Part shown: positions 3,491 through 50,119 of the stretch, piece by piece
How positions within the stretch are numbered: the first letter of the stretch is position 1
Layout of the letters: every line of letters starts with the position of its first letter
IMG/VR virus record: IMGVR_UViG_3300045988_126562
Direction: 5' to 3' (one strand)
Origin: a virus
Length of the DNA: 64,000 bases
Notes under the pieces: generated by a model
The model's database searches: none
The model's input: only the letters and a program-made list of their open reading frames with translations
What the model was told of the DNA's origin: nothing
Position numbers and translations under genes: made by a program

Positions 3491-5346
3491 TGAGTCAATA
3501 TAGTGAGGTAATTGGTAGTTTTTTAAGGAGAGGTAGCTTCCCATTAGAAGCTGATTACGTATTTAAAACGGAGGAAGCCTTAAGAAATTATTACAACCAA
3601 CCAGAAAATAAAGCCATACTTCATAAAGGTTTACTAAAAATCGTAGAAGATGATGGTTCTGGAGTACAGAGCCTTTACTGGGTAGTAGGAGAAGCTGATG
3701 GAACTTTAACTTTTTCTAAACTAATAACAAGTAAAGGTATAGGGGATTTAGAAAGTCAATTAAAAGAACTTTCTGAAAAACTGGAAAAAGAAATACAAGA
3801 TAGAAAAGATGCCGATGAAGCTATATGGGGAACTAATGATCCTACTAATATTCCGAATGATTTAAATAGTATCTTAGATTTATCTAATGCAATATTAGAG
3901 TTAAGAGAAAAAATTTCAGGAATAGAAGAAAGTCAAACCCAAATGAAGGATGAGATAATGGCTCTAGCTGGAACTACTTCACGAGACGTCATTGAGTATT
4001 TAAATACTTTAGATTATCCTTCATTAACTAAAGTATCTGAGAAATTAAATGAATTTTTCAATACTGAAAACCCAGAAAGTGAGGAAATTGATACATGGGT
4101 AGAATTAAAGAAATTCTTAAAAGGAATAACTGATGATACTACATTATCTTCCTTACTTGAAGAATATCTAAATAAAATATATGGAGATCCCCTGCCCTCT
4201 AAAGAGTTTTTAACTTTAAGGGAGATAGAAGATTTCGTAATAGAATTAAAATCTAATGTAGAGTATTCTATTAAAAACATACAGAAAGAAATAAATGATA
4301 CTCAAGTAGGAGTGGGATTGGATAGTGATGGAAAATTTAGTCCTGATCAAGAAACCAATTATCTTAAAGATGCTACTTCTGTAATGAATGCTCTAAAAAC
4401 TCTAGATTTTAAAATAAAGGATATATCCATAGATAAAGCTTTAGAAACAGAAAATCAAGATGTAGTAAAATTAGATATACGTAAAGAGCTAGAAAGAACT
4501 TTCATAAATGCCTATTTAGAATTATCATCTATAGATGGTAATGGACTTAAAAAGCAAGCAGATGGATTATATATGAAAGTTACTTCAGAATATAATAATG
4601 GAGTACTTACCTTAAAAATTAATGACTCTGTAGTAGCTCAACACGTATTAGGTATATCTTCTATTGTAGAGGATGCTTATTATGATTCACCAAATGAGGA
4701 AATAGTAATAGTATTCAAATTACTAGACGGGAATAAACAAACTATACATATTCCAGTAGGAAGCCTTATAAGAGAGTGGATAGTTGACAATTCCGGACCT
4801 AGTGATACAGTTATTCTTACTAGAATAGAAGATTTAACAGCTGGTCCTGATAAACTTTCTGCTGATGTTAGACTATATGTAGATAAGTATAATATCCTAG
4901 TAAAACAAGGAAATTCTCTTTATGTAAGAGGTACTTCTGATAATATAGTGCATAATGATGTAAAAGTCAGTGAAATATTGGAGGAACTAAAGGAAAAATC
5001 AGAATCTAGTTCTGATGAAATTTCTAAAGTGAAAGAGGATATAAAAGATATTCAAACTTCAGTTTCACAGGCTCAGAAGGATATAGATAATTTAGAATCT
5101 AGGGTAGAAAAAGTAGAGGATAATATCTCTAATACAAATAATAAATTATCTGAACATATCTTAAATTCTAATAATCCTCATAGAGTAACTAAGGATCAAG
5201 TAGGTTTAGGAAAGGTAGAAAATTTATCACCTTCAGATATGCCAATATCAAATGCTACTCAAAAAGCATTAGATTCTAAAGCAGATCTAGTTGATGGAAA
5301 AGTTCCATCAGAACAATTACCAGAATTATCTTGGATTGAAGTATGA
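3490..5346 (+). CDS. tail fibre protein (coiled-coil shaft, conserved fibre C-terminal motif)
   Basis: Start overlaps the upstream stop (TAATG). Long coiled-coil regions. The C-terminal NPHRVTKDQVGLGKVENLSPSDMPISNATQKALDSKADL matches the widespread phage-fibre motif (VGLGNVDN..KPIS..tq.AL). Confidence 0.7.
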   Translation: MSQYSEVIGSFLRRGSFPLEADYVFKTEEALRNYYNQPENKAILHKGLLKIVEDDGSGVQSLYWVVGEADGTLTFSKLITSKGIGDLESQLKELSEKLEKEIQDRKDADEAIWGTNDPTNIPNDLNSILDLSNAILELREKISGIEESQTQMKDEIMALAGTTSRDVIEYLNTLDYPSLTKVSEKLNEFFNTENPESEEIDTWVELKKFLKGITDDTTLSSLLEEYLNKIYGDPLPSKEFLTLREIEDFVIELKSNVEYSIKNIQKEINDTQVGVGLDSDGKFSPDQETNYLKDATSVMNALKTLDFKIKDISIDKALETENQDVVKLDIRKELERTFINAYLELSSIDGNGLKKQADGLYMKVTSEYNNGVLTLKINDSVVAQHVLGISSIVEDAYYDSPNEEIVIVFKLLDGNKQTIHIPVGSLIREWIVDNSGPSDTVILTRIEDLTAGPDKLSADVRLYVDKYNILVKQGNSLYVRGTSDNIVHNDVKVSEILEELKEKSESSSDEISKVKEDIKDIQTSVSQAQKDIDNLESRVEKVEDNISNTNNKLSEHILNSNNPHRVTKDQVGLGKVENLSPSDMPISNATQKALDSKADLVDGKVPSEQLPELSWIEV

Positions 5347-7145
5347 CACAAGTGATTAGACAGAAGCCTCCCAGACCAGCTAATATGAGTCAGTTAGACT
5401 ATTTATGGACATATTTTGGAGGATACAGTGTATCAGAAGAGGCTTCTACTATTCCTCAAAATGATGTCATTTTAACTGAATCTGCTATAACTAAGTTAAT
5501 TAGTACGTCTGCTGGAGGAGGAATAGTAAAATTAATTTATAGAAATCATCCTACTAATGCAGACTTGATTCAGTTAGTAGGAGCTAATATAGATGGAACA
5601 GAGATAACAGTAGTAGATATGCCAAAAGAGGTACACGTTACCAACTTTGGGTCTAGCGTAGTAACATCTGAAGATATAGATAAAGGATGCCCATTTCCTA
5701 TAGGAACAAATGTTATAGCATTAGTACTAAGTAATGATAAAAGGTTTTACTTTAACTTAGATGCTTATATAGTAGGAAGTGGAATATCTGGAGTAGATAC
5801 TAATACTATTAGGACTAAGGTAGTTAATGGAATTATATCATCTGATCTGAAAATAAAATCTACAAATAATGTAGTAGAAATAAATTCAGATAAAGATGGA
5901 ATATTTGCAGACCTAAAAATCAGCAGCCAAAATACTGGGGTAGTTATAGAAAAACAAAATGATGGTATATCTGCAAAGATCCCATTAAATAATTCCCAGT
6001 ATTTTATAAGATTTCAACAGCTTACTTTATTAGCTTATATGAATATTGAGAACAAAGATCCAGGAATGGTTTATTTCATAACTGATAAGCCTTACATTTA
6101 CTTGGGTGATAAGAGGTATGGAGTAGATATAAATCCAGGAGAAGTTCCAATAGTTTCATTAGTATATGATGCAGATCATATGTTGCTTTCCTATAAGAAA
6201 GCTGATGGCAGTGATATACAACAAATACATATGGGGCCAGTTACAGAAGAAATGCCTGGTATGCTTTCTTCTGAGGATTATGCTGAATTTAAAAAATTTA
6301 GTGAAGCTCTAGAAGGGATTCCTGATGTAAAGGAATATGTTAAACAAGAAACTGATAAACTGGCTATATCTATAGAATATGGTAATCCTGAAAATAACAG
6401 AAGACCACTATATTTAAAGAATAGACTAGGAGAAACACTAAGTACAGTTTGGATAGATGTAGATAATTTCTTAGTAGCGTCCAAAAATAAAATAGCTACT
6501 CAACAGGATGTGGAGGATGCTGAGGCTACTGGAGTGACCAATATTAATGTAGGGGATCAGATACTTATTCAGACTTTAATGAATGGAGATAAAGTTTACA
6601 CTAATTTGAAAGAATTAGTAGACGACTTTGAAGTAGGAAGAACTAAAACCATAACTCTTTCCAAATCTAAAGATAACGTAGTGTATGCTGACTTAAATAT
6701 AATAGACAGCAAAATATTATATGTAACATCTGATGGAGTAGGAGCTAATGCACAGGCATACAGAGAAGGAGGATATATTACTTTATATGGTAAAACTAAA
6801 ACTCAAGACTGTATACTAGGAAAATGGGAAGCTCCGCAAATGGAATTAATAAAAGGAGAGTTTATACCAGAGTACTCGGAAGAATTACTGGTTAGTCCTC
6901 TTTATTTAGATTGGAAAGAATATAATCAGTTTACTAACGCTCCAATAATAGGAAACCCATATTATGCGTTAACATATAAAGAATATACTGATAATCCCTC
7001 AAATATATTATATAGATATTATTGGATTTCCATTAAACCTTTACTTGATAAGGTAGGAATATCTAAAATAGAAGGAAATTTAATAAAAAAAGATAATAAT
7101 AATAACTTATACGCTCTGTTAGAGTGGTCTAATATAACTAATTAA
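5343..7145 (+). CDS. fibre/structural protein
   Basis: 600-aa ORF with an ATGA stop-start overlap upstream and a TAATG overlap downstream. Beta-rich composition, embedded in the fibre gene train. Confidence 0.5.
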   Translation: MTQVIRQKPPRPANMSQLDYLWTYFGGYSVSEEASTIPQNDVILTESAITKLISTSAGGGIVKLIYRNHPTNADLIQLVGANIDGTEITVVDMPKEVHVTNFGSSVVTSEDIDKGCPFPIGTNVIALVLSNDKRFYFNLDAYIVGSGISGVDTNTIRTKVVNGIISSDLKIKSTNNVVEINSDKDGIFADLKISSQNTGVVIEKQNDGISAKIPLNNSQYFIRFQQLTLLAYMNIENKDPGMVYFITDKPYIYLGDKRYGVDINPGEVPIVSLVYDADHMLLSYKKADGSDIQQIHMGPVTEEMPGMLSSEDYAEFKKFSEALEGIPDVKEYVKQETDKLAISIEYGNPENNRRPLYLKNRLGETLSTVWIDVDNFLVASKNKIATQQDVEDAEATGVTNINVGDQILIQTLMNGDKVYTNLKELVDDFEVGRTKTITLSKSKDNVVYADLNIIDSKILYVTSDGVGANAQAYREGGYITLYGKTKTQDCILGKWEAPQMELIKGEFIPEYSEELLVSPLYLDWKEYNQFTNAPIIGNPYYALTYKEYTDNPSNILYRYYWISIKPLLDKVGISKIEGNLIKKDNNNNLYALLEWSNITN

Positions 7146-9136
7146 TGGCACAAGTAACATTTCTTAGAGGATTAAAAGAATTTTATTCATCTGAACGATA
7201 CCCAGGAGCTATTTATTTTTCTACAGATACTAAAGAAATTATAGTAGACGGAGTAGAATATGGATTGGACTTAAATAATCCAGATTTAGATCTAATTACA
7301 TTAGTAGAGTTTATTACTCCTGATACTATTAAGTTTAGAGCTACCAATGGTAATGAAACTATTATTACTTTACCTCCAGCAACTTCCAAATCAAATGGAT
7401 TAATGTCCGCAGAAGATAAAAAGAAATTAGATGCTGTTCTTGAAGGATTTGATCCAGAAGGTCCTTCTGTTCAAGAAGAAATTGATGAGATTAAAGCATA
7501 TACAGTAAACTCTAAGGTAATAAGTGAAAATCCAGTACTTAATGGAGCAGATATTAAGTTAGATGGATACTCTAAAGCTAGTAACGAATCTAGTATAGCT
7601 CCTACTGATACAGTAAACCAAGCTATAGGTAAACTGGAATTAGCTGGAGAAAACACTAGAACTGACTTACAGAATTTTAAAGACACTAAAGGTCAGGCTA
7701 ATGGTTTAGCAACTCTTGATGAGAATGGGAAAATAGATCCATCTCAAATTGACGGAGTAGTAGGACATGTTCTTGGGGTAGAACAATTTGTAGATGCCAA
7801 TCCAGACCCAGTGGAAAATGATAAATATTATTTCAATACTACATCTAAGAAAATTCTTCATGGAGTAGATGGAAGCTGGGTAGAATCTAATCCTCAACCT
7901 CAAATCCTTTACAATAGAAGAGGAGAAGATGAAAACGGACACTCTAATACTCTTTATCGTTGGGATGGAGAACAAATGGTTGCAGTATCTGATCCCATTG
8001 CTATAGGAGAAATTACTGGAACAGCATATGACGGAGCAAAGGGTAAAGCCAATGCTGACGCTATTGCAGCCTTAAAAGAAAATACAGTAAACGGACAAAA
8101 AATTACAGAAAATCCTGTTATTGACGGATCTAATGTATCTCTTACTGGGTATTCTAAACCATCTGCTGGAGGAGCTGTTGCACCAACAGATAAAGTAAAT
8201 GATGCAATTGGCAAGTTAGAATATGATCTTGATACTGCTGAAAGTACATTAGAACAAGCTGTACAAGACATTAATGACTTACAAGAACAGGTAACAACTA
8301 ATAAAGTAGAAGCTGCTGATAAATCTGTAGTAGTTACTCCAAGTGAAGGCCAGAAAACTACTATTAGAGTAAATGTAAAATCTGGAGACAACGCTCTTAA
8401 ATTAGATGCAGAAAACGGATTATATGTTGATCAATCTGCTTTAACTTCTTACGAAGGTAAAGAGGCTATTGTAATAGCTGACAAGGCAGAATCAGAAGGA
8501 GTTAAAGAAATATCATTAAAAATTAATGCCAATGATAAGGTATTAACTCAAGCAGCAGAAGGTTTATTAGCTAACATTAATCTTACTTGGAGCACTGCAG
8601 ATGGATTAAAACTTATAGGTAAAAACTCTACTGAGATAGCATCTATTCCAGCTTCTGACTTTATAAAGGATGGAATGTTACAATCAGTAGAATTAAAGGT
8701 GGCCTCAGAAGATAAACCAATCGGGGAAGCTACTACAGGGACATTTTTAGTATTTACTTTTAATGTAGATGCAGGCTCTAAAGTAATTAATGTAAATGTT
8801 ACTGATTTAATAGATGTATATACAGCTAGCACTGGTATCAAGCTAGAAGGTAAAAACTTTATAGCAGTTATTGATCCAGCCTCCGAAGCATTTTTAACTG
8901 TAGGAGCTGATGGTATCAAGTTGTCTGGAGTTCAAAATGCTATAAGTGCTGCTAAAGCTACTGTAGATGCTTATACTGTAAACGCTAAAGCTATCAGTTC
9001 TAATCCAGTTTTATCTGGAGCTGATATAACCTTAACTGGATATTCAACTGTAGAAGGTGGAGCTGTTGCAGCTACAGATACAATAAATCAAGCAATAAAC
9101 AAATTAGATGATGCCTTAATTTGGCATGAAGCATAA
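7145..9136 (+). CDS. fibre protein with three ~47-aa internal repeats
   Basis: Three repeats: YTVNSKVISENPVLNGADIKLDGYSKASNESSIAPTDTVNQAIGKLE, NTVNGQKITENPVIDGSNVSLTGYSKPSAGGAVAPTDKVNDAIGKLE and YTVNAKAISSNPVLSGADITLTGYSTVEGGAVAATDTINQAINKLD. Fibre-like N-terminus (GAIYFSTDTKEIIV). Confidence 0.65.
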   Translation: MAQVTFLRGLKEFYSSERYPGAIYFSTDTKEIIVDGVEYGLDLNNPDLDLITLVEFITPDTIKFRATNGNETIITLPPATSKSNGLMSAEDKKKLDAVLEGFDPEGPSVQEEIDEIKAYTVNSKVISENPVLNGADIKLDGYSKASNESSIAPTDTVNQAIGKLELAGENTRTDLQNFKDTKGQANGLATLDENGKIDPSQIDGVVGHVLGVEQFVDANPDPVENDKYYFNTTSKKILHGVDGSWVESNPQPQILYNRRGEDENGHSNTLYRWDGEQMVAVSDPIAIGEITGTAYDGAKGKANADAIAALKENTVNGQKITENPVIDGSNVSLTGYSKPSAGGAVAPTDKVNDAIGKLEYDLDTAESTLEQAVQDINDLQEQVTTNKVEAADKSVVVTPSEGQKTTIRVNVKSGDNALKLDAENGLYVDQSALTSYEGKEAIVIADKAESEGVKEISLKINANDKVLTQAAEGLLANINLTWSTADGLKLIGKNSTEIASIPASDFIKDGMLQSVELKVASEDKPIGEATTGTFLVFTFNVDAGSKVINVNVTDLIDVYTASTGIKLEGKNFIAVIDPASEAFLTVGADGIKLSGVQNAISAAKATVDAYTVNAKAISSNPVLSGADITLTGYSTVEGGAVAATDTINQAINKLDDALIWHEA

Positions 9137-9139
9137 ATA

Positions 9140-9170
9140 GGAATTGGGCTTAAGCCCAATTCCTTTAATT
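9140..9170 (+). terminator. perfect 24-nt palindrome / hairpin followed by a T-rich run
   Basis: ggaattgggcttaagcccaattcc (9140-9163) is fully self-complementary. It starts 4 nt after the TAA at 9134-9136 and is followed by tttaatt. Confidence 0.6.
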
Positions 9171-9185
9171 AATAATTTAAGTGAT

Positions 9186-11627
9186 ATGGCGATTAATAAG
9201 AAATTAATTCACTTTAAGCTTAAGTCTACTTTCGAGTCAGAACTTGAAGCTGGTAATATCCTAGATACTTCCATAGTATTTATACAGGATGCCAATTTAA
9301 TATGGACTCATGGAACTTACTATTGTTTGCCTAAAGATGAGGTATTAATTTCTGAAGGAATTGAACCTACTGATGGACAAGAAATCTGGATAGACTTATC
9401 AGAAGATTCAACTGTCTTTGCAGTAGAAGAAGCTCCAAAGGATGGAAAACAATATGTAAGAGAAAATGGAAAATGGGTTGAAATTCCAATTACAGATTTA
9501 TCAAACTATCTAGCCAAAGATAATACAGAAGAATATACACCTACTTCTAACTATAACCCCGCTACGAAAAAGTATGTGGATGATAATAAGGGAGTAGAAG
9601 AAGCACCTAATGATGGTAAAGCATATATCAGAAAAAATGAATCTTGGGTAGAACATCAAGAACAAGAAGTATATGTAGGTACTACTGAACCATCAATTGA
9701 TTGCGATATTTGGATTAACCCAGAAGACGGAACCATGAAATATAAAAAGGAAGATGGTTCATGGGAGGAAATAGCTGGAGGAGGTGGAATTGGAGAAATT
9801 ACTGAAACAGTAAAAGTAAGTCTTACTTCCAATCAGTCTAATCCCAATTCAGATCTTACTGGTGTAGAAATTACAGTAGAATGTTCAGGTCTTACTAAAA
9901 AGGCTAATTGGGAAGGATCTGAACTTACTTTTAATATTCCACATTCTACAGAATACACAATTAAAGCAGCAGCTGTAGAAGGATATTCTACTCCAGCTGA
10001 TCAATCATTCACAGCAGTTATGGGAGAAACAAGAAATGTATCTGTAGTGTATAATACCACTATAGTGACTGTAAATAAAGCATGTAACCAAACTTCTGGA
10101 TTGGGAGCATCATGTACTGCTGTGGTAAAGTATGATAACACACAAAAGACGCTAAGTTTTAGTAACGCTGATACTAGCAAAACTATTAAGATCCCAACTG
10201 GTAAAAGTTATACTATAACATTTTCAGCTGTAGAAGGATATAAAACTCCTGAAGTTATTTCACAACAAGCTTCTGGAGCTTCTCAATCAGTTACTGGTAC
10301 TTACAAAGCAGAAGTAGTGACTATAACAGTAACTACTAGTGATAGTACTTCTGCCAATGGACAGAAAGTGACTGTAACAATATCAAGTACTCCTACAGAA
10401 TATACTTGGAATGGAGAAGCTATAGTGCTTAAAGTTCCTTTTGACTCTTCTTATTCTGTAGCAGCTGATCAAAAAGCTAATTACTCTACTCCAGCTACAC
10501 AATCATATACAGCTGATAGGGTAAATAGAGATATTACTCTCAATTATGTGTATGCTCCAGCAATAGGTACTATATTCAAAGATTCAGATGGAGCTAATAC
10601 ATTAGAGCAAAATGGAGGAACTGATACCAGCTGGATTAAAGGTAAAAGATGCTTAGTTAAAAAGACTAGCAGTGGAGTGGCTATTTGTTACTTAGATGAA
10701 AATAATTCAGAATTATTCCATGATGGAACTACTGCTGCCAGTTTGGATGGAAGTATGGGACAATGGATGACAGATGTACCTGAATATTATTTCAATGTAG
10801 ACGAATCTACATCCGGAGTTCATGCTTTACAAGTATCGCAATTCCAGCAAGATGGATGGAAACAATCTAGGAGAGTATTAGTAGGAGTAACTGAAGCTGT
10901 AAATGTTAGCAATAAATTATGGTCTAAAAAGGGAGGACAATCTACTGGAAGTTTAACTTCTGTAGTATTTCATAATTATGCTACAGCATTAGGAAGTGGA
11001 TTCGACATTATTGATTATGAAACTCACTGCAAAATAGCTCATTTATTCTATGCTAAATATGCTAACAGGAATCCACAAGAAATGAGTCAATTCGGATATG
11101 GAGAAAATTCATATATCAGAACTATTGGTACTACATCCTCATTAGGTAATAATGATGGAAAAACTTCTACTCAAATTAGTTTCTTAGGTATAGAAGATTT
11201 CTACGGAGGTAAGTATGAATGGATGAGTGGAATACATTCTAATGGCTCTATTTACTATATTTACGATGGATTTGAACCAGATGCAGTTCCTACCGCTAGT
11301 TATCGTACAGTAGATATAGGTGGGTCAGCTAGAAGTGGATATATAAGTAAAGTATATTGGGGCGAACATGGGGATATGATTCCTACAGAAGTAAGTGCTT
11401 CCTCTACTACACATTACTGTGACTGGGGCATTGTGGCTCGTTCTGGTTGGCGTGTTGCTAGGCGCTCTAATAGTTCTACCTATGATAATGGCGGCGTCGC
11501 TTATTTCTATGCTGCTAGTGATTCTGGCGGTTCTGATGCCGCTATCGGCTCTCGCATCCAATATAGAGGGTCTATACAAGTTATAGAAGATCCTGTTGAA
11601 TTTAAATCATTACCAGTAGGATTTTAA
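9186..11627 (+). CDS. DGR target protein: tail fibre / receptor-binding protein with a C-terminal variable region
   Basis: I prefer the ATG at 9186, because the track's TTG start at 9144 lies inside the terminator palindrome. Fibre-like N-terminus. Three ~85-aa beta-sandwich-like repeats (..AVEGYSTPADQSF.., ..AVEGYKTPEVISQ.., ..QKANYSTPATQSY..). The last ~70 codons contain the VR that matches the downstream TR. Confidence 0.85.
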   Translation: MAINKKLIHFKLKSTFESELEAGNILDTSIVFIQDANLIWTHGTYYCLPKDEVLISEGIEPTDGQEIWIDLSEDSTVFAVEEAPKDGKQYVRENGKWVEIPITDLSNYLAKDNTEEYTPTSNYNPATKKYVDDNKGVEEAPNDGKAYIRKNESWVEHQEQEVYVGTTEPSIDCDIWINPEDGTMKYKKEDGSWEEIAGGGGIGEITETVKVSLTSNQSNPNSDLTGVEITVECSGLTKKANWEGSELTFNIPHSTEYTIKAAAVEGYSTPADQSFTAVMGETRNVSVVYNTTIVTVNKACNQTSGLGASCTAVVKYDNTQKTLSFSNADTSKTIKIPTGKSYTITFSAVEGYKTPEVISQQASGASQSVTGTYKAEVVTITVTTSDSTSANGQKVTVTISSTPTEYTWNGEAIVLKVPFDSSYSVAADQKANYSTPATQSYTADRVNRDITLNYVYAPAIGTIFKDSDGANTLEQNGGTDTSWIKGKRCLVKKTSSGVAICYLDENNSELFHDGTTAASLDGSMGQWMTDVPEYYFNVDESTSGVHALQVSQFQQDGWKQSRRVLVGVTEAVNVSNKLWSKKGGQSTGSLTSVVFHNYATALGSGFDIIDYETHCKIAHLFYAKYANRNPQEMSQFGYGENSYIRTIGTTSSLGNNDGKTSTQISFLGIEDFYGGKYEWMSGIHSNGSIYYIYDGFEPDAVPTASYRTVDIGGSARSGYISKVYWGEHGDMIPTEVSASSTTHYCDWGIVARSGWRVARRSNSSTYDNGGVAYFYAASDSGGSDAAIGSRIQYRGSIQVIEDPVEFKSLPVGF
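11421..11557 (+). repeat. DGR variable repeat (VR)
   Basis: Aligns to 11688-11824 at a constant offset of 267 nt with no indels. In the part I counted (VR 11424-11557 vs TR 11691-11824, 134 positions) about 29 of 31 mismatches fall where the TR has A. Encodes WGIVARSGWRVARRSNSSTYDNGGVAYFYAASDSGGSDAAIGSR. Confidence 0.85.
11562..11576 (+). promoter_or_regulatory. short hairpin immediately 3' of the VR (candidate DGR target-recognition hairpin)
   Basis: tataga-ggg-tctata forms a 6-bp stem with a 3-nt loop. It begins 5 nt after VR/TR homology ends. Confidence 0.4.
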
Positions 11628-11687: not shown

Positions 11688-11824
11688 AAACAGAGCAATG
11701 TAGCTAATTCTAGTTGGCATGTTACTATACGCTCTAATAATTCTACCAATGATAATAGCAGCGTCACTTATTTCAATGCTAATAATGATTCTAGCAATTC
11801 TAATACCAATATCAGCTCTCACAA
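11688..11824 (+). repeat. DGR template repeat (TR), non-coding
   Basis: Lies in the 326-nt gap between the target stop (11627) and the RT start. Read in the VR frame it is rich in AAT/AGC/ACT codons (..SNVANSSWHVTIRSNNSTNDNSSVTYFNANNDSSNSNTNISSH..). The 5' boundary is uncertain and may extend to about 11681 through an A-run. Confidence 0.85.
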
Positions 11825-11953
11825 TATTGTTCATTTTTTTTTCACTTTGTATTTTAGTAGGGCTGCACCTTGCCTCTTGGCAAAAGATAGAATGCATTTT
11901 TTAAAAAGTATGGTAGCTGATTAGCGAAGTGCTTTATTGCAACAATAGTGCTT

Positions 11954-13183
11954 ATGAAAAGAATAAATGGTTTATTTGATAAAATATGTACAGAAGAAAA
12001 TATACTCTTAGCTTACAGAAATGCTACTAGAGGTAAGAAACACTACAAAGATGTAATAGCTTTCAATAAAGATTTAAAAAATAATTTGAAAACTCTTCTA
12101 ATAGAGTTAAAAACACTAACTTATAGAACATCTCCATACTATATATTTAATCTAAAGACTGGAGGCAAAGTTAGAGAAATTTATAAACTTCCCATAAGAG
12201 ATAGAATAGCACAACATGCTCTTATGAATTATATGGAACCAATATTTAGAAAATCTTTTATAGTAGACACATATTCATCTACTAAAGAAAGAGGAATCCA
12301 TATGGGATTAAGGAGGTTAACTAAGGCATTAAAGGATAAAAAAAATACTGTATACTGTTTAAAATTAGATATACATAAATTTTATCCTTCCATTAATCAA
12401 GAACTTATGAAAGCTGCACTAGCCCGTAAGTTTAAAGATAAAAGACTTTTGATAATACTAGAAGAAATAATAGACTCCACTGATAAAGGAGTCCCTATTG
12501 GAAATTATACTTCTCAATATTTTGCTAATTTCTTTTTAACTCCAATGGATCACTGGATAAAAGAAGTTCTAAGAGTTAAATACTATTTTAGATATTGTGG
12601 TGATATAGTTATATTAGGTCCAACAAAAGAATATCTATGGAACATATTTCATAAGATACAGGACTATTTAAAGGATATACAATTAGAATTGAAACCAAAC
12701 TGGCAGGTATTTCCAGTAGAATCTAGAAGTGTAGACTTTTTAGGATACAAATCTAGGCATGAATATATACTTGTTAGAAAATATATCAAAAAGAACTTTA
12801 TTAATAAACTAAGACAGAGCAATACATTTGAATCCAAAAGAAATATTTTAGGCTCATATTGGGGGATTTTTTGTCATGCAAACTGTCGTAATCTATGGAG
12901 AACATATACCGGAATGAGAACCTTCAAGGATTTAGGAATTGAAGTTAAAACCCGTGTTAGAGTACCTGACATAGTAGATAAGATTATAATAATTAATAGC
13001 ATGAAAGTCAAGTTTAAAAGAGGTAATAAATGTGTTGATATTTCAGCTACTTATGAAGATAGAGAGATTAAGTTTACTACATTTGCTGAAATGATTATTG
13101 AAGCAGCTGAGCAGATTAGTAACTCAGATTTACCTTTTGAAACTAAGATAATATCAGAAAATGGATTTTACAAATTTGAATAA
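11954..13183 (+). CDS. DGR-type reverse transcriptase
   Basis: RT motifs are present: LKLDIHKFYPSI (motif A); PIGNYTSQYFANFFL (the DGR-specific GxxxSQ motif B); FRYCGDIVILG (motif C, non-canonical YCGD); LELKPNWQVFPV..VDFLGY (motifs D/E). I prefer the ATG at 11954 over the track's GTG at 11948. Confidence 0.9.
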   Translation: MKRINGLFDKICTEENILLAYRNATRGKKHYKDVIAFNKDLKNNLKTLLIELKTLTYRTSPYYIFNLKTGGKVREIYKLPIRDRIAQHALMNYMEPIFRKSFIVDTYSSTKERGIHMGLRRLTKALKDKKNTVYCLKLDIHKFYPSINQELMKAALARKFKDKRLLIILEEIIDSTDKGVPIGNYTSQYFANFFLTPMDHWIKEVLRVKYYFRYCGDIVILGPTKEYLWNIFHKIQDYLKDIQLELKPNWQVFPVESRSVDFLGYKSRHEYILVRKYIKKNFINKLRQSNTFESKRNILGSYWGIFCHANCRNLWRTYTGMRTFKDLGIEVKTRVRVPDIVDKIIIINSMKVKFKRGNKCVDISATYEDREIKFTTFAEMIIEAAEQISNSDLPFETKIISENGFYKFE

Positions 13184-13184
13184 C

Positions 13185-14156
13185 ATGAGAATATTAAAAG
13201 CAAGTAGCACTTTAAAACCTCAACTGCTTGAATACATTGGTTCTGGTTCTTGGAGAGTTAGATGGAATATATCTAAAGAACAAAAGGAAGAAGCAGAATT
13301 ATATGAGTATGTAGAAGCAGAATTAGGATATAAAGCTGCTATTGAAGAATTAAAAACCATAGTAGTAAACTGGGTAAGAGATAACTTCCAACCTAATTCT
13401 TTTTATATAGATGGACATAAGTATTGGGCATCTGATGCAGAAAGAGCAACTATTAAGTCTCAATGCGAGTCTGATGCAGAAAATTCTACTATTTCTCTTA
13501 CTTGTGATGATTCTATAATTACTTTAAAAGCTCAGTCAGTATTACGAGTAATGATGATGATAGATAATTATAGTATCAAATATAAAAAAGTAGTAGAAAC
13601 TTTAGTAAACGAAATTAATCAATGTTCTACTATAGAAGAAATAAATGAGTTGAATTTTAAATTAGAATTGCCAGAAGAAGTTCATACTACTCAGGTGGAA
13701 TTAGGAAGATTAACAAGTAACAGACAAAAAAACTCTAAAGAGAATCAAGCTATACTATTTGCTAAAATGACTATAAATGCAACTCCACTCACTGATAACC
13801 AAGCTATTAGTGTAAAGAACTTGCACCCTGAGTGGAAGGAATTTATAGGTAAATCTTTATCTACTGGATTTAGAGTTTTGCATGAAGATGCTTTATACAA
13901 AGTAAGGCAAGATATTAGTGTAGTGTTAGAAAATCAACCCCCATCTATAGATACTGCTGCATTGTATGAAGAAATTAATGAAACTCATGATGGGACAAAG
14001 ACAGACCCAATACCATACAACAACAATATGGCTTTAGAATTAGGAAAATATTACATCCAAGATGATATTATATATATGTGTACTAGAGATACAGGTCAAG
14101 CAGTCTATCAAGATTTATCTGACTTAGTAGGAATTTATGTACAAATAGCAGAATAA
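13185..14156 (+). CDS. hypothetical protein, paralogue 1 (shared C-terminal ~125-aa domain, possibly carbohydrate-binding)
   Basis: ATG at 13185 lies 1 nt after the RT stop; an alternative ATG at 13161 overlaps the RT. The C-terminal region FAKMTINATPLTDNQAISVKNLHPEWKEFIG...LVGIYVQIAE is closely similar to the next gene. The W..F.G..V.....LYKV.Q...PS pattern loosely resembles CBM5/12-type modules. Confidence 0.55.
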   Translation: MRILKASSTLKPQLLEYIGSGSWRVRWNISKEQKEEAELYEYVEAELGYKAAIEELKTIVVNWVRDNFQPNSFYIDGHKYWASDAERATIKSQCESDAENSTISLTCDDSIITLKAQSVLRVMMMIDNYSIKYKKVVETLVNEINQCSTIEEINELNFKLELPEEVHTTQVELGRLTSNRQKNSKENQAILFAKMTINATPLTDNQAISVKNLHPEWKEFIGKSLSTGFRVLHEDALYKVRQDISVVLENQPPSIDTAALYEEINETHDGTKTDPIPYNNNMALELGKYYIQDDIIYMCTRDTGQAVYQDLSDLVGIYVQIAE

Positions 14157-14159
14157 AAT

Positions 14160-14717
14160 ATGGCAGTAATTAAATATAAAAATCCGAAATACACAGAGGG
14201 TGGTTCAGAACCTAAGTATATAGTTATTCCTACATTAACTATGGAAAATAATGGATTGACTAAATATAAAAATGGAGAATCCTGGGAAGATTTGGTTCCA
14301 GAAATGCAATTAATGTCATTTGCTAAAATGGCTGTAAATACTATGAGCCTTACAGATGAACAGGCTTTAAGTGTTAAATTACTTCATCCAGAATGGGAAG
14401 AATTCATAGGAGGATCTCTATCAGCAGGAGAAAGGGTTATGTATGATGATAAGCTATACAAAGTAAAACAAGAGATAAACCCAGTACTAGAAAATCAGCC
14501 TCCATCTATAGAGACAGCAGCTCTATACGAAGAGATAAATGAAAAACATGCTGGTACTAAAGAAGATCCAATTCCATTCAATAATAATATGGAATTAGAA
14601 CTTGGTAAGTACTATTCTCAAAATGGAGTAACTTATATGTGTTTCAGAGATTCACAACAACCAGTTTATCAGAATTTAGCTGATTTAGTTGGAATCTATG
14701 TACAAATAGCTGAGTAA
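14160..14717 (+). CDS. hypothetical protein, paralogue 2 (same C-terminal domain)
   Basis: FAKMAVNTMSLTDEQALSVKLLHPEWEEFIG...LVGIYVQIAE. Its last six residues (YVQIAE) are identical to those of the upstream gene. Confidence 0.6.
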   Translation: MAVIKYKNPKYTEGGSEPKYIVIPTLTMENNGLTKYKNGESWEDLVPEMQLMSFAKMAVNTMSLTDEQALSVKLLHPEWEEFIGGSLSAGERVMYDDKLYKVKQEINPVLENQPPSIETAALYEEINEKHAGTKEDPIPFNNNMELELGKYYSQNGVTYMCFRDSQQPVYQNLADLVGIYVQIAE

Positions 14718-15585: not shown

Positions 15586-16425
15586 ATGAGAAGAAGAACT
15601 CTTGGGTCTAAGAAATTAGTAGATAAAGAGATAAGATTTACCTCATCTACTAGTTGGACTATACCAGCTGGATGTAAATCAATAGATATATTTTTAGTAG
15701 GCGGTGGAGGAGCCGGGGGAAATTGGGTAACTTGGGGCTATACTTCAGGAGGACCTGGAAGTGGAGGTGGAACTAACACAGTCAAAAACATCTCTGTAAT
15801 ATCGGGTCAGTCAGTTTCTATTTCTATTGGAGCAGGAGGATCTTCTGTAAGTTCCGATGGATCTCCCTCTACCTTAACAGTTAATAATAACACATATACT
15901 GCTCCAGGAGGAAATGGAGGACCTCAATCTAGAAACGGATTACCTAATGATGATCCATACAATTATTGTTATGTAACGTGTGCAGCTAGTCCAGCTAACA
16001 ACGGAATATATAGAAACTCAGGGATAATAGGAGTGGGTAAAAATGATGGTACTACTATAGAATATGTAAAAGATGACAGAAATGTAGAGTTAGACTCTTA
16101 TGATAGGTCTATTTATGGTACAAATTCTAGTACTACTGGAGACAATCCTTATCGCTATAGAACTGGTGTACCAGAATTTTGGGAGGATGATAAACCTCTT
16201 CATGCAGCCGGAGGTTCTAATAGTCAATCTTTACAAATAATATCTGATTTCACAGAAGGATCTGGAGAAACTGTTACTAGACATTACAATAGTGGTGATA
16301 ATGGTATCCAACGTGGCGGAGGAGGATATGGAGGTGGGGGAGCAGGAGTAACATATAGCTCTTCCAAATCATTTAGTTCTGGAGGTAGTGGTATAGTAAT
16401 AATACGATATAAAGCTTATGAATAA
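15586..16425 (+). CDS. fibre-cassette member B: glycine-rich domain protein
   Basis: N-terminus MRRRTLGSKKL. The layout ..WTIPAGCKSIDIFLVGGGGAGG.. followed by GG-rich blocks and ending GGSGIVIIRYKAYE matches the phage/bacterial glycine-rich domain family. Confidence 0.75.
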   Translation: MRRRTLGSKKLVDKEIRFTSSTSWTIPAGCKSIDIFLVGGGGAGGNWVTWGYTSGGPGSGGGTNTVKNISVISGQSVSISIGAGGSSVSSDGSPSTLTVNNNTYTAPGGNGGPQSRNGLPNDDPYNYCYVTCAASPANNGIYRNSGIIGVGKNDGTTIEYVKDDRNVELDSYDRSIYGTNSSTTGDNPYRYRTGVPEFWEDDKPLHAAGGSNSQSLQIISDFTEGSGETVTRHYNSGDNGIQRGGGGYGGGGAGVTYSSSKSFSSGGSGIVIIRYKAYE

Positions 16426-16434
16426 TTTAATTTT

Positions 16435-16442
16435 GGGGGGGG
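16435..16442 (+). repeat. intergenic G8 homopolymer
   Basis: ttttGGGGGGGGact, followed by actacttCCC. It lies 45 nt upstream of the ATG at 16487. Confidence 0.95.
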
Positions 16443-16474
16443 ACTACTTCCCTAATTACTGACATACTTACCGA

Positions 16475-16482
16475 AAGGAGGT
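16475..16482 (+). promoter_or_regulatory. canonical Shine-Dalgarno (AAGGAGGT)
   Basis: aaggaggt lies 4 nt upstream of the ATG at 16487. Confidence 0.7.
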
Positions 16483-16486
16483 TAGT

Positions 16487-17269
16487 ATGTTAAGAAGAAG
16501 TATTAATAATAAAAGAGAGAAACAATTATTTATTAAGAGATTTTATCCTGCTGGCATATATACTTGGACTGTTCCTGCTGGATGCGAAGAAGTTGATGTA
16601 TTCCTTGTTGGAGGAGGTGGAGGCAGTGGAAACGGTTCAGGAGCGGGAAGTGGGTATACCAAAACATTTAAAAAGGATTCCATAGGAGTAAAACAAGGAA
16701 ACCAAGTTTCAGTTGTTCCAGGTCAATCTATCGAGATTATAGTAGGAAAAGGAGGAGAAGGGTTATATCATGGGTATCCAGACACAGGAGGATATTCTCA
16801 ATTTATGAACTCTAATTATAGAGCTAATGGAGGAAACCCTTCAGGCAATGGACTACTTAATGGAGAAAATTCAACTGGAGGTCCTTATACTGGTGGGAAT
16901 GGTGGTAGTGGAGGATCTGTAGATCAATTAGGAGATGAATTTTATGCTGGATCAGATGGATCTGATGCACCTGGAATAACGGATGACAATGGAGTATATC
17001 ATCAACCTGGAACAAAATATGGAGGAGGAAAAGGTCAAGGATATACAACTAGAGATTTCGGTGAACCAACAGGTAAAAGAAATGCTGGTGGCGGAGGAGC
17101 TGATAGAAATAGAGATAATGGAAATGGAGGCGAATCTGATTATGATGAAGGATGTGGTACTGGTCGAGGTACTAGAAAAAGTGGAGGATATGGCGGAGGA
17201 GGTTGCGGCTCCTATGGAACTGGAGGAGATGGAACAGTGCTAATTAGATATTATGCTTATAAAGAATAA
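16487..17269 (+). CDS. fibre-cassette member C: glycine-rich domain protein
   Basis: N-terminus MLRRSINNKREKQL. ..WTVPAGCEEVDVFLVGGGGGSGNGSGAGSG.. and a C-terminus GGDGTVLIRYYAYKE make it a paralogue of the previous gene. Confidence 0.75.
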   Translation: MLRRSINNKREKQLFIKRFYPAGIYTWTVPAGCEEVDVFLVGGGGGSGNGSGAGSGYTKTFKKDSIGVKQGNQVSVVPGQSIEIIVGKGGEGLYHGYPDTGGYSQFMNSNYRANGGNPSGNGLLNGENSTGGPYTGGNGGSGGSVDQLGDEFYAGSDGSDAPGITDDNGVYHQPGTKYGGGKGQGYTTRDFGEPTGKRNAGGGGADRNRDNGNGGESDYDEGCGTGRGTRKSGGYGGGGCGSYGTGGDGTVLIRYYAYKE

Positions 17270-25352: not shown

Positions 25353-26771
25353 ATGATAGTAGCAAATTTCGTTACAAAAAGACCGACAATGTCGGAAACT
25401 CACACCTATGAAGATTTTTATAAATTCTTAGGTACACGCCCAACAAGATTGGGAGTTATGTCTCGTATGTACCCAGAACTTACAGCAACATTCCTTACTG
25501 AATCTCTTAGAAATATCTTTTACATGGATAATAAGAGACAGCAATATAGGAGTATTGACTCCTTATATTTCGATTGGGATGTTGAAACTAACTACATTAA
25601 GAGAGTAGAGTTCGCAGCAGTTCCTACTGAAACTGGAGAAAATGGATCTGAAATCATTATGTATTTCAAAGAGAGGTACTACGAAAAATATGATATTTTC
25701 AAGATTGATAAAACTAGGCAGCAATGTTTTGTTGTTGAACGCCCAGTAAGAAAGGCAGATGATATGTGGGAATATGTTGTTAGATTAATTGACAATGATT
25801 ATTCTTCTTTACTTGATGTATCTGGATGTCAAATTGGAGACACTACTAGATTCCAATCTAATGCTATGCCAGAAATGCACGAAGAAGGTTATATCAAGTA
25901 TCAATCTAATATTGAAAAACACAGAGGTTATATTACTACTCACCGTGTTGATGTATCATATTCTGCATTATTCGCAGCTATGGAAGATCAATTCATCAGT
26001 ATTGCAGAAGGAAAAGACAATGGTTCTTTAAAGGAAACTCTGTACAAGATGAATAAGAAGGAAAAAGACTTATTAAATAGCTTCTTAGAAGTTAGAAATA
26101 ACGGTCTTTTATTTAATAAAACAAATGTAGACAAAAATGGTAAGTCTACTATCGTCGATCCTGATACAGGACGTCCAATTTATATTGGAGATGGAGTTAT
26201 TCCTCAGGTAGAAAGGTTCGCATCTAAGTACGCGTTCAATAAATTAACTATTCAGGTATTTATGGATGCTATGTCTGCAATGGCAGAAAAGGCTGAACAA
26301 CCTACAGGAAATCATTTTGTATTTATTTGCAATGAAAGAATGTGGACTCTTGTTCAACATATCTTAGGTGAATATTTATCTAGGTTTAAGCCAGCTACAG
26401 CTTATATGTATAGTAAGGCAAAGAACGGATACTTAGACGTAGGAGCTACATTCCAAGCATATGAATTTGGAGGAAATACTATCTCATTTAAAGTAGATAG
26501 GACGTTCTCTAGAGAATATGGGATGGAAAAGGCTTATGCTCTGTTACTTGATTTAACAGCTGATAAGTCTACAGGTGAACCTGCAATGCAAATGTTCACT
26601 TTAAAGGGAGGTGACTTCGTTACTAATAAATTCCCAGGAGTTGGTGGTCTTGATGGTCTAAGCTCTGGTATTGTTTCTTCTGCTGTAGCAGCTAGTAAAC
26701 TTATCAACTGGGGATACTCAGGTATCGCTGTATTCTCTCCATACAGGGCATATATTATGGAAGAAATTTAA
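25353..26771 (+). CDS. putative major capsid protein
   Basis: 472 aa, the expected size for a crAss-like HK97-fold capsid protein. It follows a scaffold-like gene and is followed by a hairpin. The call rests on position and size only. Confidence 0.55.
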   Translation: MIVANFVTKRPTMSETHTYEDFYKFLGTRPTRLGVMSRMYPELTATFLTESLRNIFYMDNKRQQYRSIDSLYFDWDVETNYIKRVEFAAVPTETGENGSEIIMYFKERYYEKYDIFKIDKTRQQCFVVERPVRKADDMWEYVVRLIDNDYSSLLDVSGCQIGDTTRFQSNAMPEMHEEGYIKYQSNIEKHRGYITTHRVDVSYSALFAAMEDQFISIAEGKDNGSLKETLYKMNKKEKDLLNSFLEVRNNGLLFNKTNVDKNGKSTIVDPDTGRPIYIGDGVIPQVERFASKYAFNKLTIQVFMDAMSAMAEKAEQPTGNHFVFICNERMWTLVQHILGEYLSRFKPATAYMYSKAKNGYLDVGATFQAYEFGGNTISFKVDRTFSREYGMEKAYALLLDLTADKSTGEPAMQMFTLKGGDFVTNKFPGVGGLDGLSSGIVSSAVAASKLINWGYSGIAVFSPYRAYIMEEI

Positions 26772-47186: not shown

Positions 47187-50119
47187 TATTTACAGTCTAT
47201 TTTTAAATTATTATTTTGAATTAGGTTAGATTTCACATTAGAAATTTTATTTTCAGTAATGGTTTTATCTAAATTTACTCCTATCGTTAAGTCTTTCAAA
47301 AGAGAACTATTTCCATCTAGTAATAATGTTTTCATTAGAGTATTCATAAACTCAGAGTCGTCTCTAAATTTATCTGTAGAGTCGGTCCGGAATAGTTGAA
47401 AAGCTAACTCTTTAATATTTAAATCAGATACTTTTAAGGCTCCATAATCTTGTACCCTTCCCATAAAATAGTCAGTTACTGCATGTACCAAAACTTCTTC
47501 AGCATAATCATTTGGAGATAACTCTCTGTACCTTTCTTTTAGTTCTTCAAATTGAGTTAAATCAGGTATATTTTTGAGCATTTCAGAATACGCTGCTGGA
47601 TTAGATACTTTATATTGAGCTAATAATAAATGCATCAACTCATGTATAGGAGAATCTTCTGTACTTAAATCTGAGTTTAAGATTATCATTCCACTATGTA
47701 TAAAAGCTTTGTTACTTGCCAAATTAGGTCCAAATAATGAGGTAATTTCATCAGAAGTAAACATATTCACTTTGATTCCTGATCTTTTCAAAGAATTAGC
47801 TAAAACTTCAAGCATATTTACGTTAGAATAATTAGGAGCATTTACCTCTACTCTGGAAATTGCCTCTGGAGTATAATGGGCGAATACATAAAATTTTTTA
47901 TTCTGAAAGTTATTATAATTTCCAAATTCTTCATTTAGGAAATTTTCATAAGTATCATAAATAGTTTTTTCAAAGATTTCTCTTAGTTCTGGCTCGAAGA
48001 ATTTCTTGTATTCTGTTACATTATGTCCAACAAACAAATCATCCTTTACTAATCCAGATAAAGTATTGTAATATACATTATCTCCAATGTATCTTAAGTC
48101 TGACATATACAGAGGAGAATGGTTAGAATAAGTACTATTAATCTGAGACTTAGGTATTTCTACATAGGTATTACCTTCGGATAGAATGAATCCATAATTG
48201 TTGTCAGTTATATTTACTAATACCCCGGTCTTTCTTTTATTATCATCAAATAAGAGAGAAAATACTACTCCTTTATTAAATCCTCCAGTATATACATTAT
48301 ACATGGAAGTATAGGGATTGAGTTTAGGTCTAAATTTAAAATCATAGATATGGTCTATAACCATTTTCATCTTATTCTGTGATACTGTATTAGTTATTGT
48401 GACAGTATCCCCAGCTTGCATCTCTTTTAAATTGGCAAATAATCCGGGATTCTCACTATTAGTAAATTTTTGAAATTCTTCATTAGTAAAAGACTTATTT
48501 ATTGTTGATTTTGTAAAAGATAAATTTAATTCACTATCCAAGTAAGATAAAAATTCTCCTCTGTTTCTATTAATTGTATAATAATTTGGATAAATATAAG
48601 AAGATATTCCAGATTGATTTGCAGCTTTAACTGCTTGTATTGCAAAATCATCATACACTGTAGAATGTACTGACTCTACTAATACTCCATCAGTGTTTAA
48701 TTTTTCTATTAATTCAGACAATCCCTTTACAACTGATTTAGTAGGAATGGATTTCTGTTTTAGAACTACCCATTTTGGTTTTTTACCTTTCCCTGCATTC
48801 TTTCCTGTTTTTGTTGAAACTTCCGCTTTTATTTCCTTTATTTGTTCATCAGTTAATTCATACTTAGGATTTATTAATATTTTTAAAGGTTTGCCTGACT
48901 TTACTGTTGCAAATTTGGAGGTTGATTCATCTAATATTAGTTCTACATAAGTATCTTTAGATTTTAAAGTACTATTCATTACGTAGTTACTCTCATTTAA
49001 ATAAATCACTTTATCCTCTACTTGATAATCATCCTCCACTTCAATAGAACCTACTTTTGGAATATAAGATTCATCCATTGAAATCTCTGGAGTTTTATAT
49101 AAATAATCAATTATATTATTTATTGTTTTATTAACACTAGGATCAAATAATTCATTTACTTCTATATCTTCGTTATTCAATAAATCATTTAATAGCTGTT
49201 CGTACTTTCCAGTTTTATTATCCTCGTAAAACTTTTTAAATTGAATTGGAACATTGTCTGGCAATTGAGAATCTGATACATCAGTAGCACTTTTGTAATT
49301 TCTTACCTTCTGCAATAATCCTATAATATTAGAATTAGTATATTTATGATTATTGAATACTGTTATATTATTTCCATATCCTATTATTGATTTTATTTTA
49401 TCTCCTACAACTGTGGTTCCAGTTATATTTATAGAATTTTCCGTTTTAGATTTTATTATTCCTCCTAACTCTCTTAGTAAATTTTTACTTAATTCACTAT
49501 CGTCCGATTGAGCTAGCAATAGCAACTTTTTGGCAGCTGTTAATTCTGATACTCCTTCCAAATGTTCTCTAAATGGATGATTTGAATCTAGAATCTGCTC
49601 TACATAATTAGATAAGGTTCTATAAATAGGACTGTTTTTATTAGTAGATTCCTTACTTGCGTATTTAAACGCTAGAGTTTGGGATAAAGAAGATCCTGAT
49701 TCCATAATTGATGGATTTAATAGAATAAAATCCCTTTTAGTTCCTATATAGGCTTTACTTAATTTAGTAGAGTCACTAAATAAAAAAGAATTATCAGTAT
49801 AATTAAGAAGATTGGTAATAGCAGAAACTGCGCTAAAGTCAGTAGACTGATTTATTCTAGATAATGTAGCAAGATTTAAACTAGTTGCATTACCTATAGC
49901 ATAATCTCCAATATTGGTAGCTATTTGTTCTCCTTTAGCAATAATTTCATTTACATCTTGATCTACAGTATTTATAATATCGTCAATTTCCGATTGAAAT
50001 CTTTTACTTCTAACTAAAGTCCCTAAAATACTATCTAGAGATGTGGACGAAATATCCACATCTCTAAAAGTATATTTTTTAGAACCTATTTGTATTTGTA
50101 CACAACCTTTCTTACTCAT
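47186..50119 (-). CDS. 978-aa protein with an HExxH zincin-like motif
   Basis: SPIHELMHLLLAQY, with HELMH encoded at 47630-47644. The ATG at 50119 forms an ATGAGTAA overlap with the upstream gene's stop. Confidence 0.5.
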   Translation of the reverse strand: MSKKGCVQIQIGSKKYTFRDVDISSTSLDSILGTLVRSKRFQSEIDDIINTVDQDVNEIIAKGEQIATNIGDYAIGNATSLNLATLSRINQSTDFSAVSAITNLLNYTDNSFLFSDSTKLSKAYIGTKRDFILLNPSIMESGSSLSQTLAFKYASKESTNKNSPIYRTLSNYVEQILDSNHPFREHLEGVSELTAAKKLLLLAQSDDSELSKNLLRELGGIIKSKTENSINITGTTVVGDKIKSIIGYGNNITVFNNHKYTNSNIIGLLQKVRNYKSATDVSDSQLPDNVPIQFKKFYEDNKTGKYEQLLNDLLNNEDIEVNELFDPSVNKTINNIIDYLYKTPEISMDESYIPKVGSIEVEDDYQVEDKVIYLNESNYVMNSTLKSKDTYVELILDESTSKFATVKSGKPLKILINPKYELTDEQIKEIKAEVSTKTGKNAGKGKKPKWVVLKQKSIPTKSVVKGLSELIEKLNTDGVLVESVHSTVYDDFAIQAVKAANQSGISSYIYPNYYTINRNRGEFLSYLDSELNLSFTKSTINKSFTNEEFQKFTNSENPGLFANLKEMQAGDTVTITNTVSQNKMKMVIDHIYDFKFRPKLNPYTSMYNVYTGGFNKGVVFSLLFDDNKRKTGVLVNITDNNYGFILSEGNTYVEIPKSQINSTYSNHSPLYMSDLRYIGDNVYYNTLSGLVKDDLFVGHNVTEYKKFFEPELREIFEKTIYDTYENFLNEEFGNYNNFQNKKFYVFAHYTPEAISRVEVNAPNYSNVNMLEVLANSLKRSGIKVNMFTSDEITSLFGPNLASNKAFIHSGMIILNSDLSTEDSPIHELMHLLLAQYKVSNPAAYSEMLKNIPDLTQFEELKERYRELSPNDYAEEVLVHAVTDYFMGRVQDYGALKVSDLNIKELAFQLFRTDSTDKFRDDSEFMNTLMKTLLLDGNSSLLKDLTIGVNLDKTITENKISNVKSNLIQNNNLKIDCK

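Follow-up and report, generated by a model that had tools for sequence, protein, structure and literature searches.

The 64,000-nucleotide stretch of IMG/VR virus record IMGVR_UViG_3300045988_126562 that we analyzed (hereafter the window) carries a diversity-generating retroelement (DGR), made up of a target gene with a variable region (VR), a template region (TR) and a gene for a reverse transcriptase (RT). At its catalytic motif C, this RT reads YCGD in place of YCDD, with a glycine at residue 216 (the G216 allele). We found that G216 is a real, derived and shallow allele, and that it is part of a non-random, recurrent series of active-site substitutions within its phage species. We consider it rather probable that the substitution has recently knocked out catalysis, or left a severe hypomorph, and that G216 comes from a recurrently selected class of 'DGR-off' alleles.

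A genuine, derived minority allele at motif C

The initial annotation of the window had read Y-C-G-D at motif C, and the codons at 12593-12604 and an alignment to bRT, the RT of Bordetella phage BPP-1, agree on this. The structure of bRT (8ub7) is the closest solved structure to the window's RT (phmmer E 6.6e-44, with group II intron RTs at 5e-14); at the DNA level the gene is closest to RTs of crAss-like phages. In the phmmer alignment, 'yyfRYCGDIVILG' in the window matches 'hwaRYMDDIVVLG' in bRT column for column, so G216 occupies the position of the first motif-C aspartate. The derived base is the G at 12600, which is RT nucleotide 647, and a single G>A change there would give back YCDD, as had been pointed out.

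The exact G216 protein is present on 17 contigs from NCBI, JGI, Logan and ENA in a public protein collection, and a contig look-up placed it on 21 contigs (28 index blocks) produced by several projects and assemblers. Among ten G216 loci that we fetched, the RT gene was identical or one synonymous base off in nine, and contig L006 carried the allele on another synonymous background. The 11 RT genes that encode the exact G216 protein (the window and contigs L001-L010) hold no further nonsynonymous changes. A sequencing or assembly error at 12600, one of the options in the initial annotation, would need to affect just the one base that separates G216 from the majority allele. This option is refuted because the identical protein recurs in independent ENA, Logan, JGI and NCBI assemblies; the same allele emerges from independent pipelines and projects, and on three synonymous backgrounds, which leaves an error with a negligible chance.

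To express frequency we used two yardsticks, a spurious 65 amino acid open reading frame (ORF) antisense to the TR and a neighboring protein of 106 amino acids, each shared by nearly all strains and found in ~730 index blocks. On this scale G216 makes up ~4% of sampled blocks (28/~730), where contigs and blocks are not independent samples and several G216 contigs are re-assemblies of MetaHIT runs. Position 216 is an aspartate in 118 of 118 cluster representatives of other species (≤73% identity), and when IMG/VR was scanned with a pattern that left the motif free, all 59 true RT matches read YCDD. The commonest allele within the species (P0135; 79 contigs, 123 blocks) is the window's protein with D216. 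Thus G216, which a single A>G transition separates from wild type, is a derived minority allele, and the earlier suggestion of a population variant in a phage species where YCDD is the majority is borne out; comparing orthologous RTs at this codon, where relatives carry aspartate, leaves G216 as a genuine minority allele. A third suggestion, that the enzyme tolerates the change, finds no support, as glycine occurs at this position in none of the 118 representatives and none of the 59 IMG/VR matches.

Recurrent substitutions at invariant and catalytic positions

G216 is one of many changes at conserved RT positions, a phenomenon demonstrated here in one phage species. We covered 31 of the 241 distinct members of the 90%-identity RT cluster to which the window's protein belongs. 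Motif-C changes other than YCGD were present in 5 of 14 cluster members drawn without choice (HCDD, CCDD, YCND, YCDG and YCDN), and further changes among the members were K72E, R74K, T106A, S109F/P, Y144H, P145S/L and R275K/G. Twelve of the 24 distinct within-species substitutions hit positions, 60 in all, whose invariance among the 118 homologues is at least 98% (binomial p 5e-5). Purifying selection or drift would have given the reverse of this concentration on invariant positions.

We then set a test in advance. If catalytic knock-outs are favored, all transitions at the catalytic codons should exist as otherwise wild-type proteins, whereas the same changes at unconserved D and Y codons should not. 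D139G (8 contigs), D139N (6), Y214C (1) and D217N (13) all exist on the wild-type background; D139 is the catalytic aspartate of motif A and is invariant in the 118 homologues. In contrast, exact-protein look-ups found none of the six control proteins D33G, D241G, D342G, D392N, Y277C and Y63H (4/4 vs 0/6; Fisher p 0.0048). Y214H (12 contigs), D216N (3), D217G (5) and D216G (17) are also present, and all eight transition variants of D139, Y214, D216 and D217 (D139G/N, Y214H/C, D216G/N and D217G/N) thus occur in the species. The hits at the other invariant residues K72, R74, T106, P145 and R275 may belong to the same knock-out class.

The nucleotide haplotypes of 76 complete RT genes indicate that single alleles occur on more than one synonymous background: three for D216G, six for D217N, four for D139G, five for S109F and three each for P145S and R275G. 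Contigs with a knock-out allele often have a wild-type nearest neighbor, at 8-24 single-nucleotide polymorphisms (SNPs) per 4.4 kb upstream of the VR. For example, the D139G contigs L054 and L052 are 8 and 10 SNPs from wild-type L022 and L026, and the D217N contig L042 is 13 SNPs from wild-type L021; these flank distances are distorted for the window, L001 and L037, which lack an 836-nt segment. The pattern of haplotypes and flanks fits repeated recent origins of the alleles, and recombination could contribute to it. We had considered that G216 might instead be old and under purifying selection, based on four linked synonymous markers, but rejected this as the haplotype is not exclusive to G216: the window's synonymous RT haplotype also occurs with D216 and N217 (L044, L045 and L049), and L036 has a partial wild-type version of it. 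The same haplotype is found in contig L037 (OPMH01000551, coverage 1.8), where motif C reads C-C-G-G, with three A>G changes within 12 nt (RT nucleotides 641, 647 and 650). The 3' half of the L037 VR equals that of the window and the 5' half is different; this contig could reflect further decay, a recombinant or a low-coverage error.

Could such alleles accumulate simply because constraint on the RT is relaxed? A DGR RT is not required for phage replication, so that the gene might be dispensable in the short term and G216 effectively neutral, without selection for its loss. The low frequency of each knock-out allele, with G216 at ~4% of blocks, is compatible with this. However, drift predicts changes spread over the gene, and the changes found are instead concentrated at invariant catalytic positions, with eight of eight catalytic transition variants present against none of six controls, and most of them on several backgrounds. 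Relaxed constraint should also yield stop codons and frameshifts, and we found none in the 76 complete RT genes apart from one likely sequencing error, L061. Together, these observations make drift quite unlikely. The overlap of the RT gene's end with the following ORF may be why truncating alleles are missing.

The exception, P0004/L061, was rejected as a genuine frameshifted RT because it contains several homopolymer indels and is probably a product of sequencing error. In this contig a T-run one base shorter (window 13165-13168) joins the RT to the downstream ORF, and an A8>A7 change at 12338 frameshifts the RT.

How common the altered alleles are depends on how they are sampled. At first, a third of contigs seemed to have catalytic variants, a figure that we discarded because targeted look-ups had inflated it. 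By summing the countable alleles of the catalytic quartet, we arrive at roughly 10-15% of the ~730 index blocks. We also sampled 25 loci without regard to the RT, using the TR-antisense ORF and the 106 amino acid neighboring protein. Aside from the catalytic quartet, considered below, these loci had P145S (6 loci), R275K/G (7), K72E (1) or L79F (1), and eight looked wild type. P145 and R275 are 98-100% invariant elsewhere, and judging from this conservation P145S and R275K/G are perhaps hypomorphs. R275 (window 12776-12778) is invariant in the 118 homologues, yet within this species R275K is found on 30 contigs and R275G on 14. In two contigs, L040 and L064, P145S occurs with three more nonsynonymous changes (D237G, R336I and T366I) and one extra synonymous change, and this allele may represent an RT that is decaying after its inactivation.

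Activity of the G216 enzyme and diversity of the VR

In HIV-1 RT, the equivalent aspartate is D185, which acts with D110 in coordinating metal B and the classic metal A (PMC11618517), and a bRT mutant with YMDD changed to SMAA is inactive (PMC12875486). Because this aspartate ligates the catalytic Mg2+ ions and the bRT mutant is dead, we expect G216 to be inactive; it is most likely catalytically dead or severely impaired. In the explanation that we favor, after a single A>G at 12600 turned the first motif-C aspartate into glycine, cDNA synthesis from the TR RNA would have stopped and the VR would have stayed as it was last written. Point knock-outs of D139, Y214, D216 and D217 would arise repeatedly on different backgrounds and reach appreciable frequency, driven by short-term selection for switching hypermutation off, with YCDD retained in long-lasting lineages. 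Presumably there is a cost to RT activity itself or to further randomizing a receptor-binding site that is already well adapted, and candidate sources of selection are the load of randomized receptor-binding proteins, cDNA that is costly or toxic, or escape from host defense.

Knock-out lineages do not appear to persist, because related species keep the catalytic residues, with rare exceptions. Three other RT clusters are hit at the same residues: P0099 with YCDN, P0048 with P145Q and P0106 with P145L. These clusters hint that the phenomenon extends somewhat beyond one species, though 59 of 59 relatives in IMG/VR read YCDD. Taken together, we regard it as evenly balanced whether the species maintains a natural on/off polymorphism of its DGR, in which full-length knock-outs that one transition can revert, perhaps along with hypomorphs at P145 and R275, are positively selected repeatedly within host populations and later lost or reverted.

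A specific version of this selection would be a host defense that senses RT activity or its cDNA or RNA-DNA product, with the mutants as escape variants. Two features would fit this idea: the hits are catalytic missense changes that keep the protein at full length, and they seem to be concentrated in a single phage species, which a pressure specific to the host would predict. However, direct evidence for it is absent, a cost of hypermutation predicts the same pattern, and we know of no defense trigger that senses the activity of a DGR RT. We therefore consider host defense a very unlikely source of the selection.

If G216 has abolished activity, its VR should no longer change. One option in the initial annotation was recent inactivation of the RT with a VR that is now frozen, and for the window's lineage we infer that this reading is the likeliest. 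A handful of SNPs over 19 kb separate the window from L001, its closest relative; the two VRs differ by 1 nt, and the VR looks stable in this sub-lineage. In addition, homing would erase VR/TR mismatches at C/G sites. Such mismatches are present in 8 of 26 VRs that accompany variant RTs, compared with 0 of 14 that accompany wild-type-like RTs (p 0.03), a difference in weak agreement with VRs that have ceased to be refreshed.

Several observations weigh against a selected, inactive G216. Among G216 carriers that share the same RT and TR, we count at least five or six different VRs, and two assemblies from the run ERR321227 (L002 and L008) differ in the VR and are identical over 9.4 kb of upstream flank. 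The VR is also where several contigs with knock-out alleles break off, which within-sample heterogeneity of the VR would lead one to expect. Both the VR diversity and these breaks could mean that homing continues in G216 populations. Catalytic-quartet variants were found in 2 of the 25 loci sampled without regard to the RT (~8%), one of the two being the low-coverage contig L037, and allele sampling was otherwise partly targeted. Such variants are rare in other species of the RT family, and the phenomenon may be phage-specific. Finally, we infer selection for knock-outs from the pattern of alleles only.

The G216 RT could continue to home either through residual activity, if D217 and D139 suffice at the very low rates required of a DGR, or through trans-complementation by a co-infecting wild-type phage. 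Apart from the different VRs on identical RT/TR haplotypes, including those within one sequencing run, two G216 contigs (L009 and L010) break inside the VR, and co-infection is plausible given that wild-type alleles are the majority in the species. However, D139G and D217N carriers are just as diverse, with nearly each sample having its own VR as for G216, and so VR diversity does not discriminate between an active and an inactive G216. For this reason, and because the RT haplotype is not exclusive to G216, we rejected VR diversity as proof of residual G216 activity. The several backgrounds per allele fit the view that the alleles have arisen more than once from wild-type populations undergoing diversification, glycine is absent from this position in RTs of the family outside the species, and the aspartate lost here corresponds to a ligand of the catalytic metals in HIV-1 RT. 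We thus view continued homing by G216 as unlikely. Our best explanation for the VR diversity among carriers is that diversifying wild-type populations have given rise to knock-outs repeatedly, with recombination or trans-complementation as possible alternatives.

Across the species, the VR is highly diverse: 48 related contigs have 42 distinct VRs that vary at the same columns. Twelve contigs end in or beside the VR (L009, L010, L013, L017, L033, L035, L049, L057, L059, L060, L154 and L155). They span all RT allele classes and include contigs of genome length, ~175 kb. The VR is probably heterogeneous within samples and breaks assemblies.

The DGR cassette, its phage and known systems

The positions of the cassette's features are given in Table 1.

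Table 1. Features of the DGR cassette and the adjoining ORF in the window.
Feature	Position	Strand	Basis or remark
DGR target gene, tail-fibre-like	9144..11627	+	ORF; VR at 3' end
VR	11428..11556	+	129 nt; direct repeat of TR, 79% identical
TR	11695..11823	+	129-nt repeat partner of VR
TR-RT spacer	11824..11953	+	presumed 3' part of the DGR RNA
DGR RT gene, G216 allele	11954..13183	+	409 aa; Pfam RVT_1, E 3.6e-17
Motif A catalytic Asp, D139	12368..12370	+	intact; aligned with bRT motif 'LKSDFSKFFPSI'
IGNYTSQ, DGR-RT signature [I/V/L]GxxxSQ	12497..12517	+	sequence; motif definition from PMC7826257
Motif C, YCGD for YCDD	12593..12604	+	tat tgt ggt gat = Y214-C215-G216-D217
Overlap of RT stop with next ORF start	13161..13183	+	23 nt; ORF list; same in nearly all related loci
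Downstream ORF	13161..14156	+	331 aa; no Pfam match; kept in most relatives

The locus is a DGR by the clade signature of its RT, its adenine-biased TR/VR pair, the VR in the 3' end of the target gene and the TR beside the RT. A competent RT combines the motif A aspartate with YxDD; this copy lacks the second of these and is probably an inactive allele of a DGR. The adenine bias described in the initial annotation holds, with 26 of the TR/VR mismatches at TR adenines, but we counted 27 mismatches in all rather than about 29 adenine-directed differences. The one that remains is a T>G at a non-adenine TR position (VR 11461 vs TR 11728), which recurs in many independent VRs. The remaining non-adenine mismatches among these VRs are also mostly T>G and adjoin adenines, which suggests a secondary misincorporation or selection pattern of the DGR.

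The VR ends 71 nt before the stop of the target gene (11627), which in turn lies 67 nt before the TR, and 130 nt separate the end of the TR from the start of the RT. The TR is essentially invariant among the related contigs examined, and the TR-RT spacer is kept at all loci except for a T-run length polymorphism near 11835-11843. As a check for an initiation of mutagenic homing (IMH) site, we compared the 3' ends of the repeats: VR/TR homology stops at 11556/11823, beyond which the two diverge. The region around the 3' end of the VR (11540-11600) did not fold better than shuffled sequence (z 0.71), giving no sign of a hairpin or cruciform there. We looked for a second RT or a second VR in the window and found none, and the ORF list contains no suitable ORF for avd between the target and the RT, making this an avd-less DGR.

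The target gene has a weak match to Fibritin_C (Pfam), and orthologues, with versions of 812-827 amino acids in relatives, are present at all related loci in the setting of a tail/structural module. A search for a C-type-lectin fold found no Pfam match in the C-terminal 275 amino acids, and a single-sequence AlphaFold model had a predicted local distance difference test (pLDDT) score of 30 and was unusable. The RT itself has a C-terminal extension of ~90 amino acids (residues ~320-409, window 12911-13180) past the part aligned with bRT, and many relatives of 300-350 amino acids lack such an extension. The overlap between the RT and the downstream ORF suggests possible translational coupling of the two genes.

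Gene content varies around the cassette. Upstream, the window and L001 lack the 836-nt segment, encoding a 278 amino acid protein, at ~7145, the junction of ORFs 5343-7145 and 7145-9136; in nearly all other strains it is present between genes for 600 and 660 amino acid proteins. Downstream of the RT lies a hot spot of gene-content variation, where many contigs stop. After the 331 amino acid ORF, relatives have a gene for 557-597 amino acids (a ~2.3 kb indel); the window instead has a 185 amino acid ORF (14160-14717) whose C-terminal ~110 residues repeat the C-terminus of the 331 amino acid ORF. The number and length of glycine-rich tandem genes at 15586-17269 (PF21722 Gly_rich_2 in relatives) also differ by strain.

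A crAss-type capsid protein is encoded at 25353-26771 of the window (PF23898 Crass_capsid, E 4.1e-15, 55.6 bits vs a cut-off of 27), and related contigs are ~170-180 kb. Based on the capsid match and this size, the window comes from a large crAss-like gut phage. The phage is uncultivated and probably belongs to the Zeta group of PMC12386605, a putative placement resting on agreement in genome size (~175 kb), the avd-less DGR and the size of the RT; a phage collection that we searched contained no close record. On the minus strand, a 3181 amino acid ORF (50112-59657) matches no PHROG and is only 25-26% identical to two faecal phage records that carry no annotation; crAss-like phages typically encode a giant virion-associated protein, and this ORF may be it.

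DGRs tend to be portrayed as standing generators of diversity, and the natural limits and costs of their activity are little documented. The phage studied here is present in hundreds of human gut metagenomes. If our explanation is correct, catalytic knock-outs would account for part of the DGR inactivity seen in surveys, and the allele series would provide population-genetic evidence that targeted hypermutation is costly and tuned by second-order selection. The theory of mutator and anti-mutator alleles could then be tested directly on targeted hypermutation, by following VR dynamics in wild-type and knock-out lineages with existing data. An intact, full-length RT ORF would also be no proof of an operative DGR, and annotation should check motifs A and C residue by residue.

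Among known systems, those closest to this cassette include the DGR of BPP-1. Both place the VR at the 3' end of a receptor-binding gene and the TR beside the RT, and both have adenine-specific mismatches; the two RTs align over residues 2-315 and share the [I/V/L]GxxxSQ motif and R74. The window's DGR differs from that of BPP-1 in lacking avd, in the C-terminal extension of its RT (~90 amino acids) and in having YCDD (wild type) or YCGD where bRT has YMDD. The engineered bRT(SMAA) likewise has a disrupted motif C, with an expected phenotype of no cDNA and no homing (PMC12875486), but it is a triple substitution made in the laboratory, whereas G216 is a natural single transition that affects the first aspartate only and is known here from sequence.

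DGRs of Zeta and other crAss-like phages are found in genomes of ~150-190 kb, have a tail-fibre target with a C-terminal VR and an RT of ~399-414 amino acids, and are mostly avd-less (PMC12386605). The window resembles them in being from a crAss-like gut phage with an avd-less DGR, a tail-fibre target with a C-terminal VR and an RT of 409 amino acids. That survey treats full-length RT genes as presumably operative and does not report catalytic-site polymorphism. Judged by single-nucleotide variants in the VR, 25-50% of natural DGRs are without sign of recent activity (Roux et al., bioRxiv 10.1101/2020.04.01.020958); activity is classed there by VR diversity, without a link to RT active-site changes or to a genetic cause.

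In the literature that we searched, coverage of which was incomplete, we encountered no description of a DGR RT that is naturally polymorphic at its catalytic site, which does not prove that the observation is new. A broader parallel is the turnover of mutator and anti-mutator alleles, as in the loss and restoration of mismatch repair in bacteria. The two are alike in the repeated, simple gain and loss of mutation supply and in the opposition of short- and long-term selection. They differ in that the system here is a targeted retroelement acting on one gene, whose off state is a catalytic missense allele one transition from reversion.

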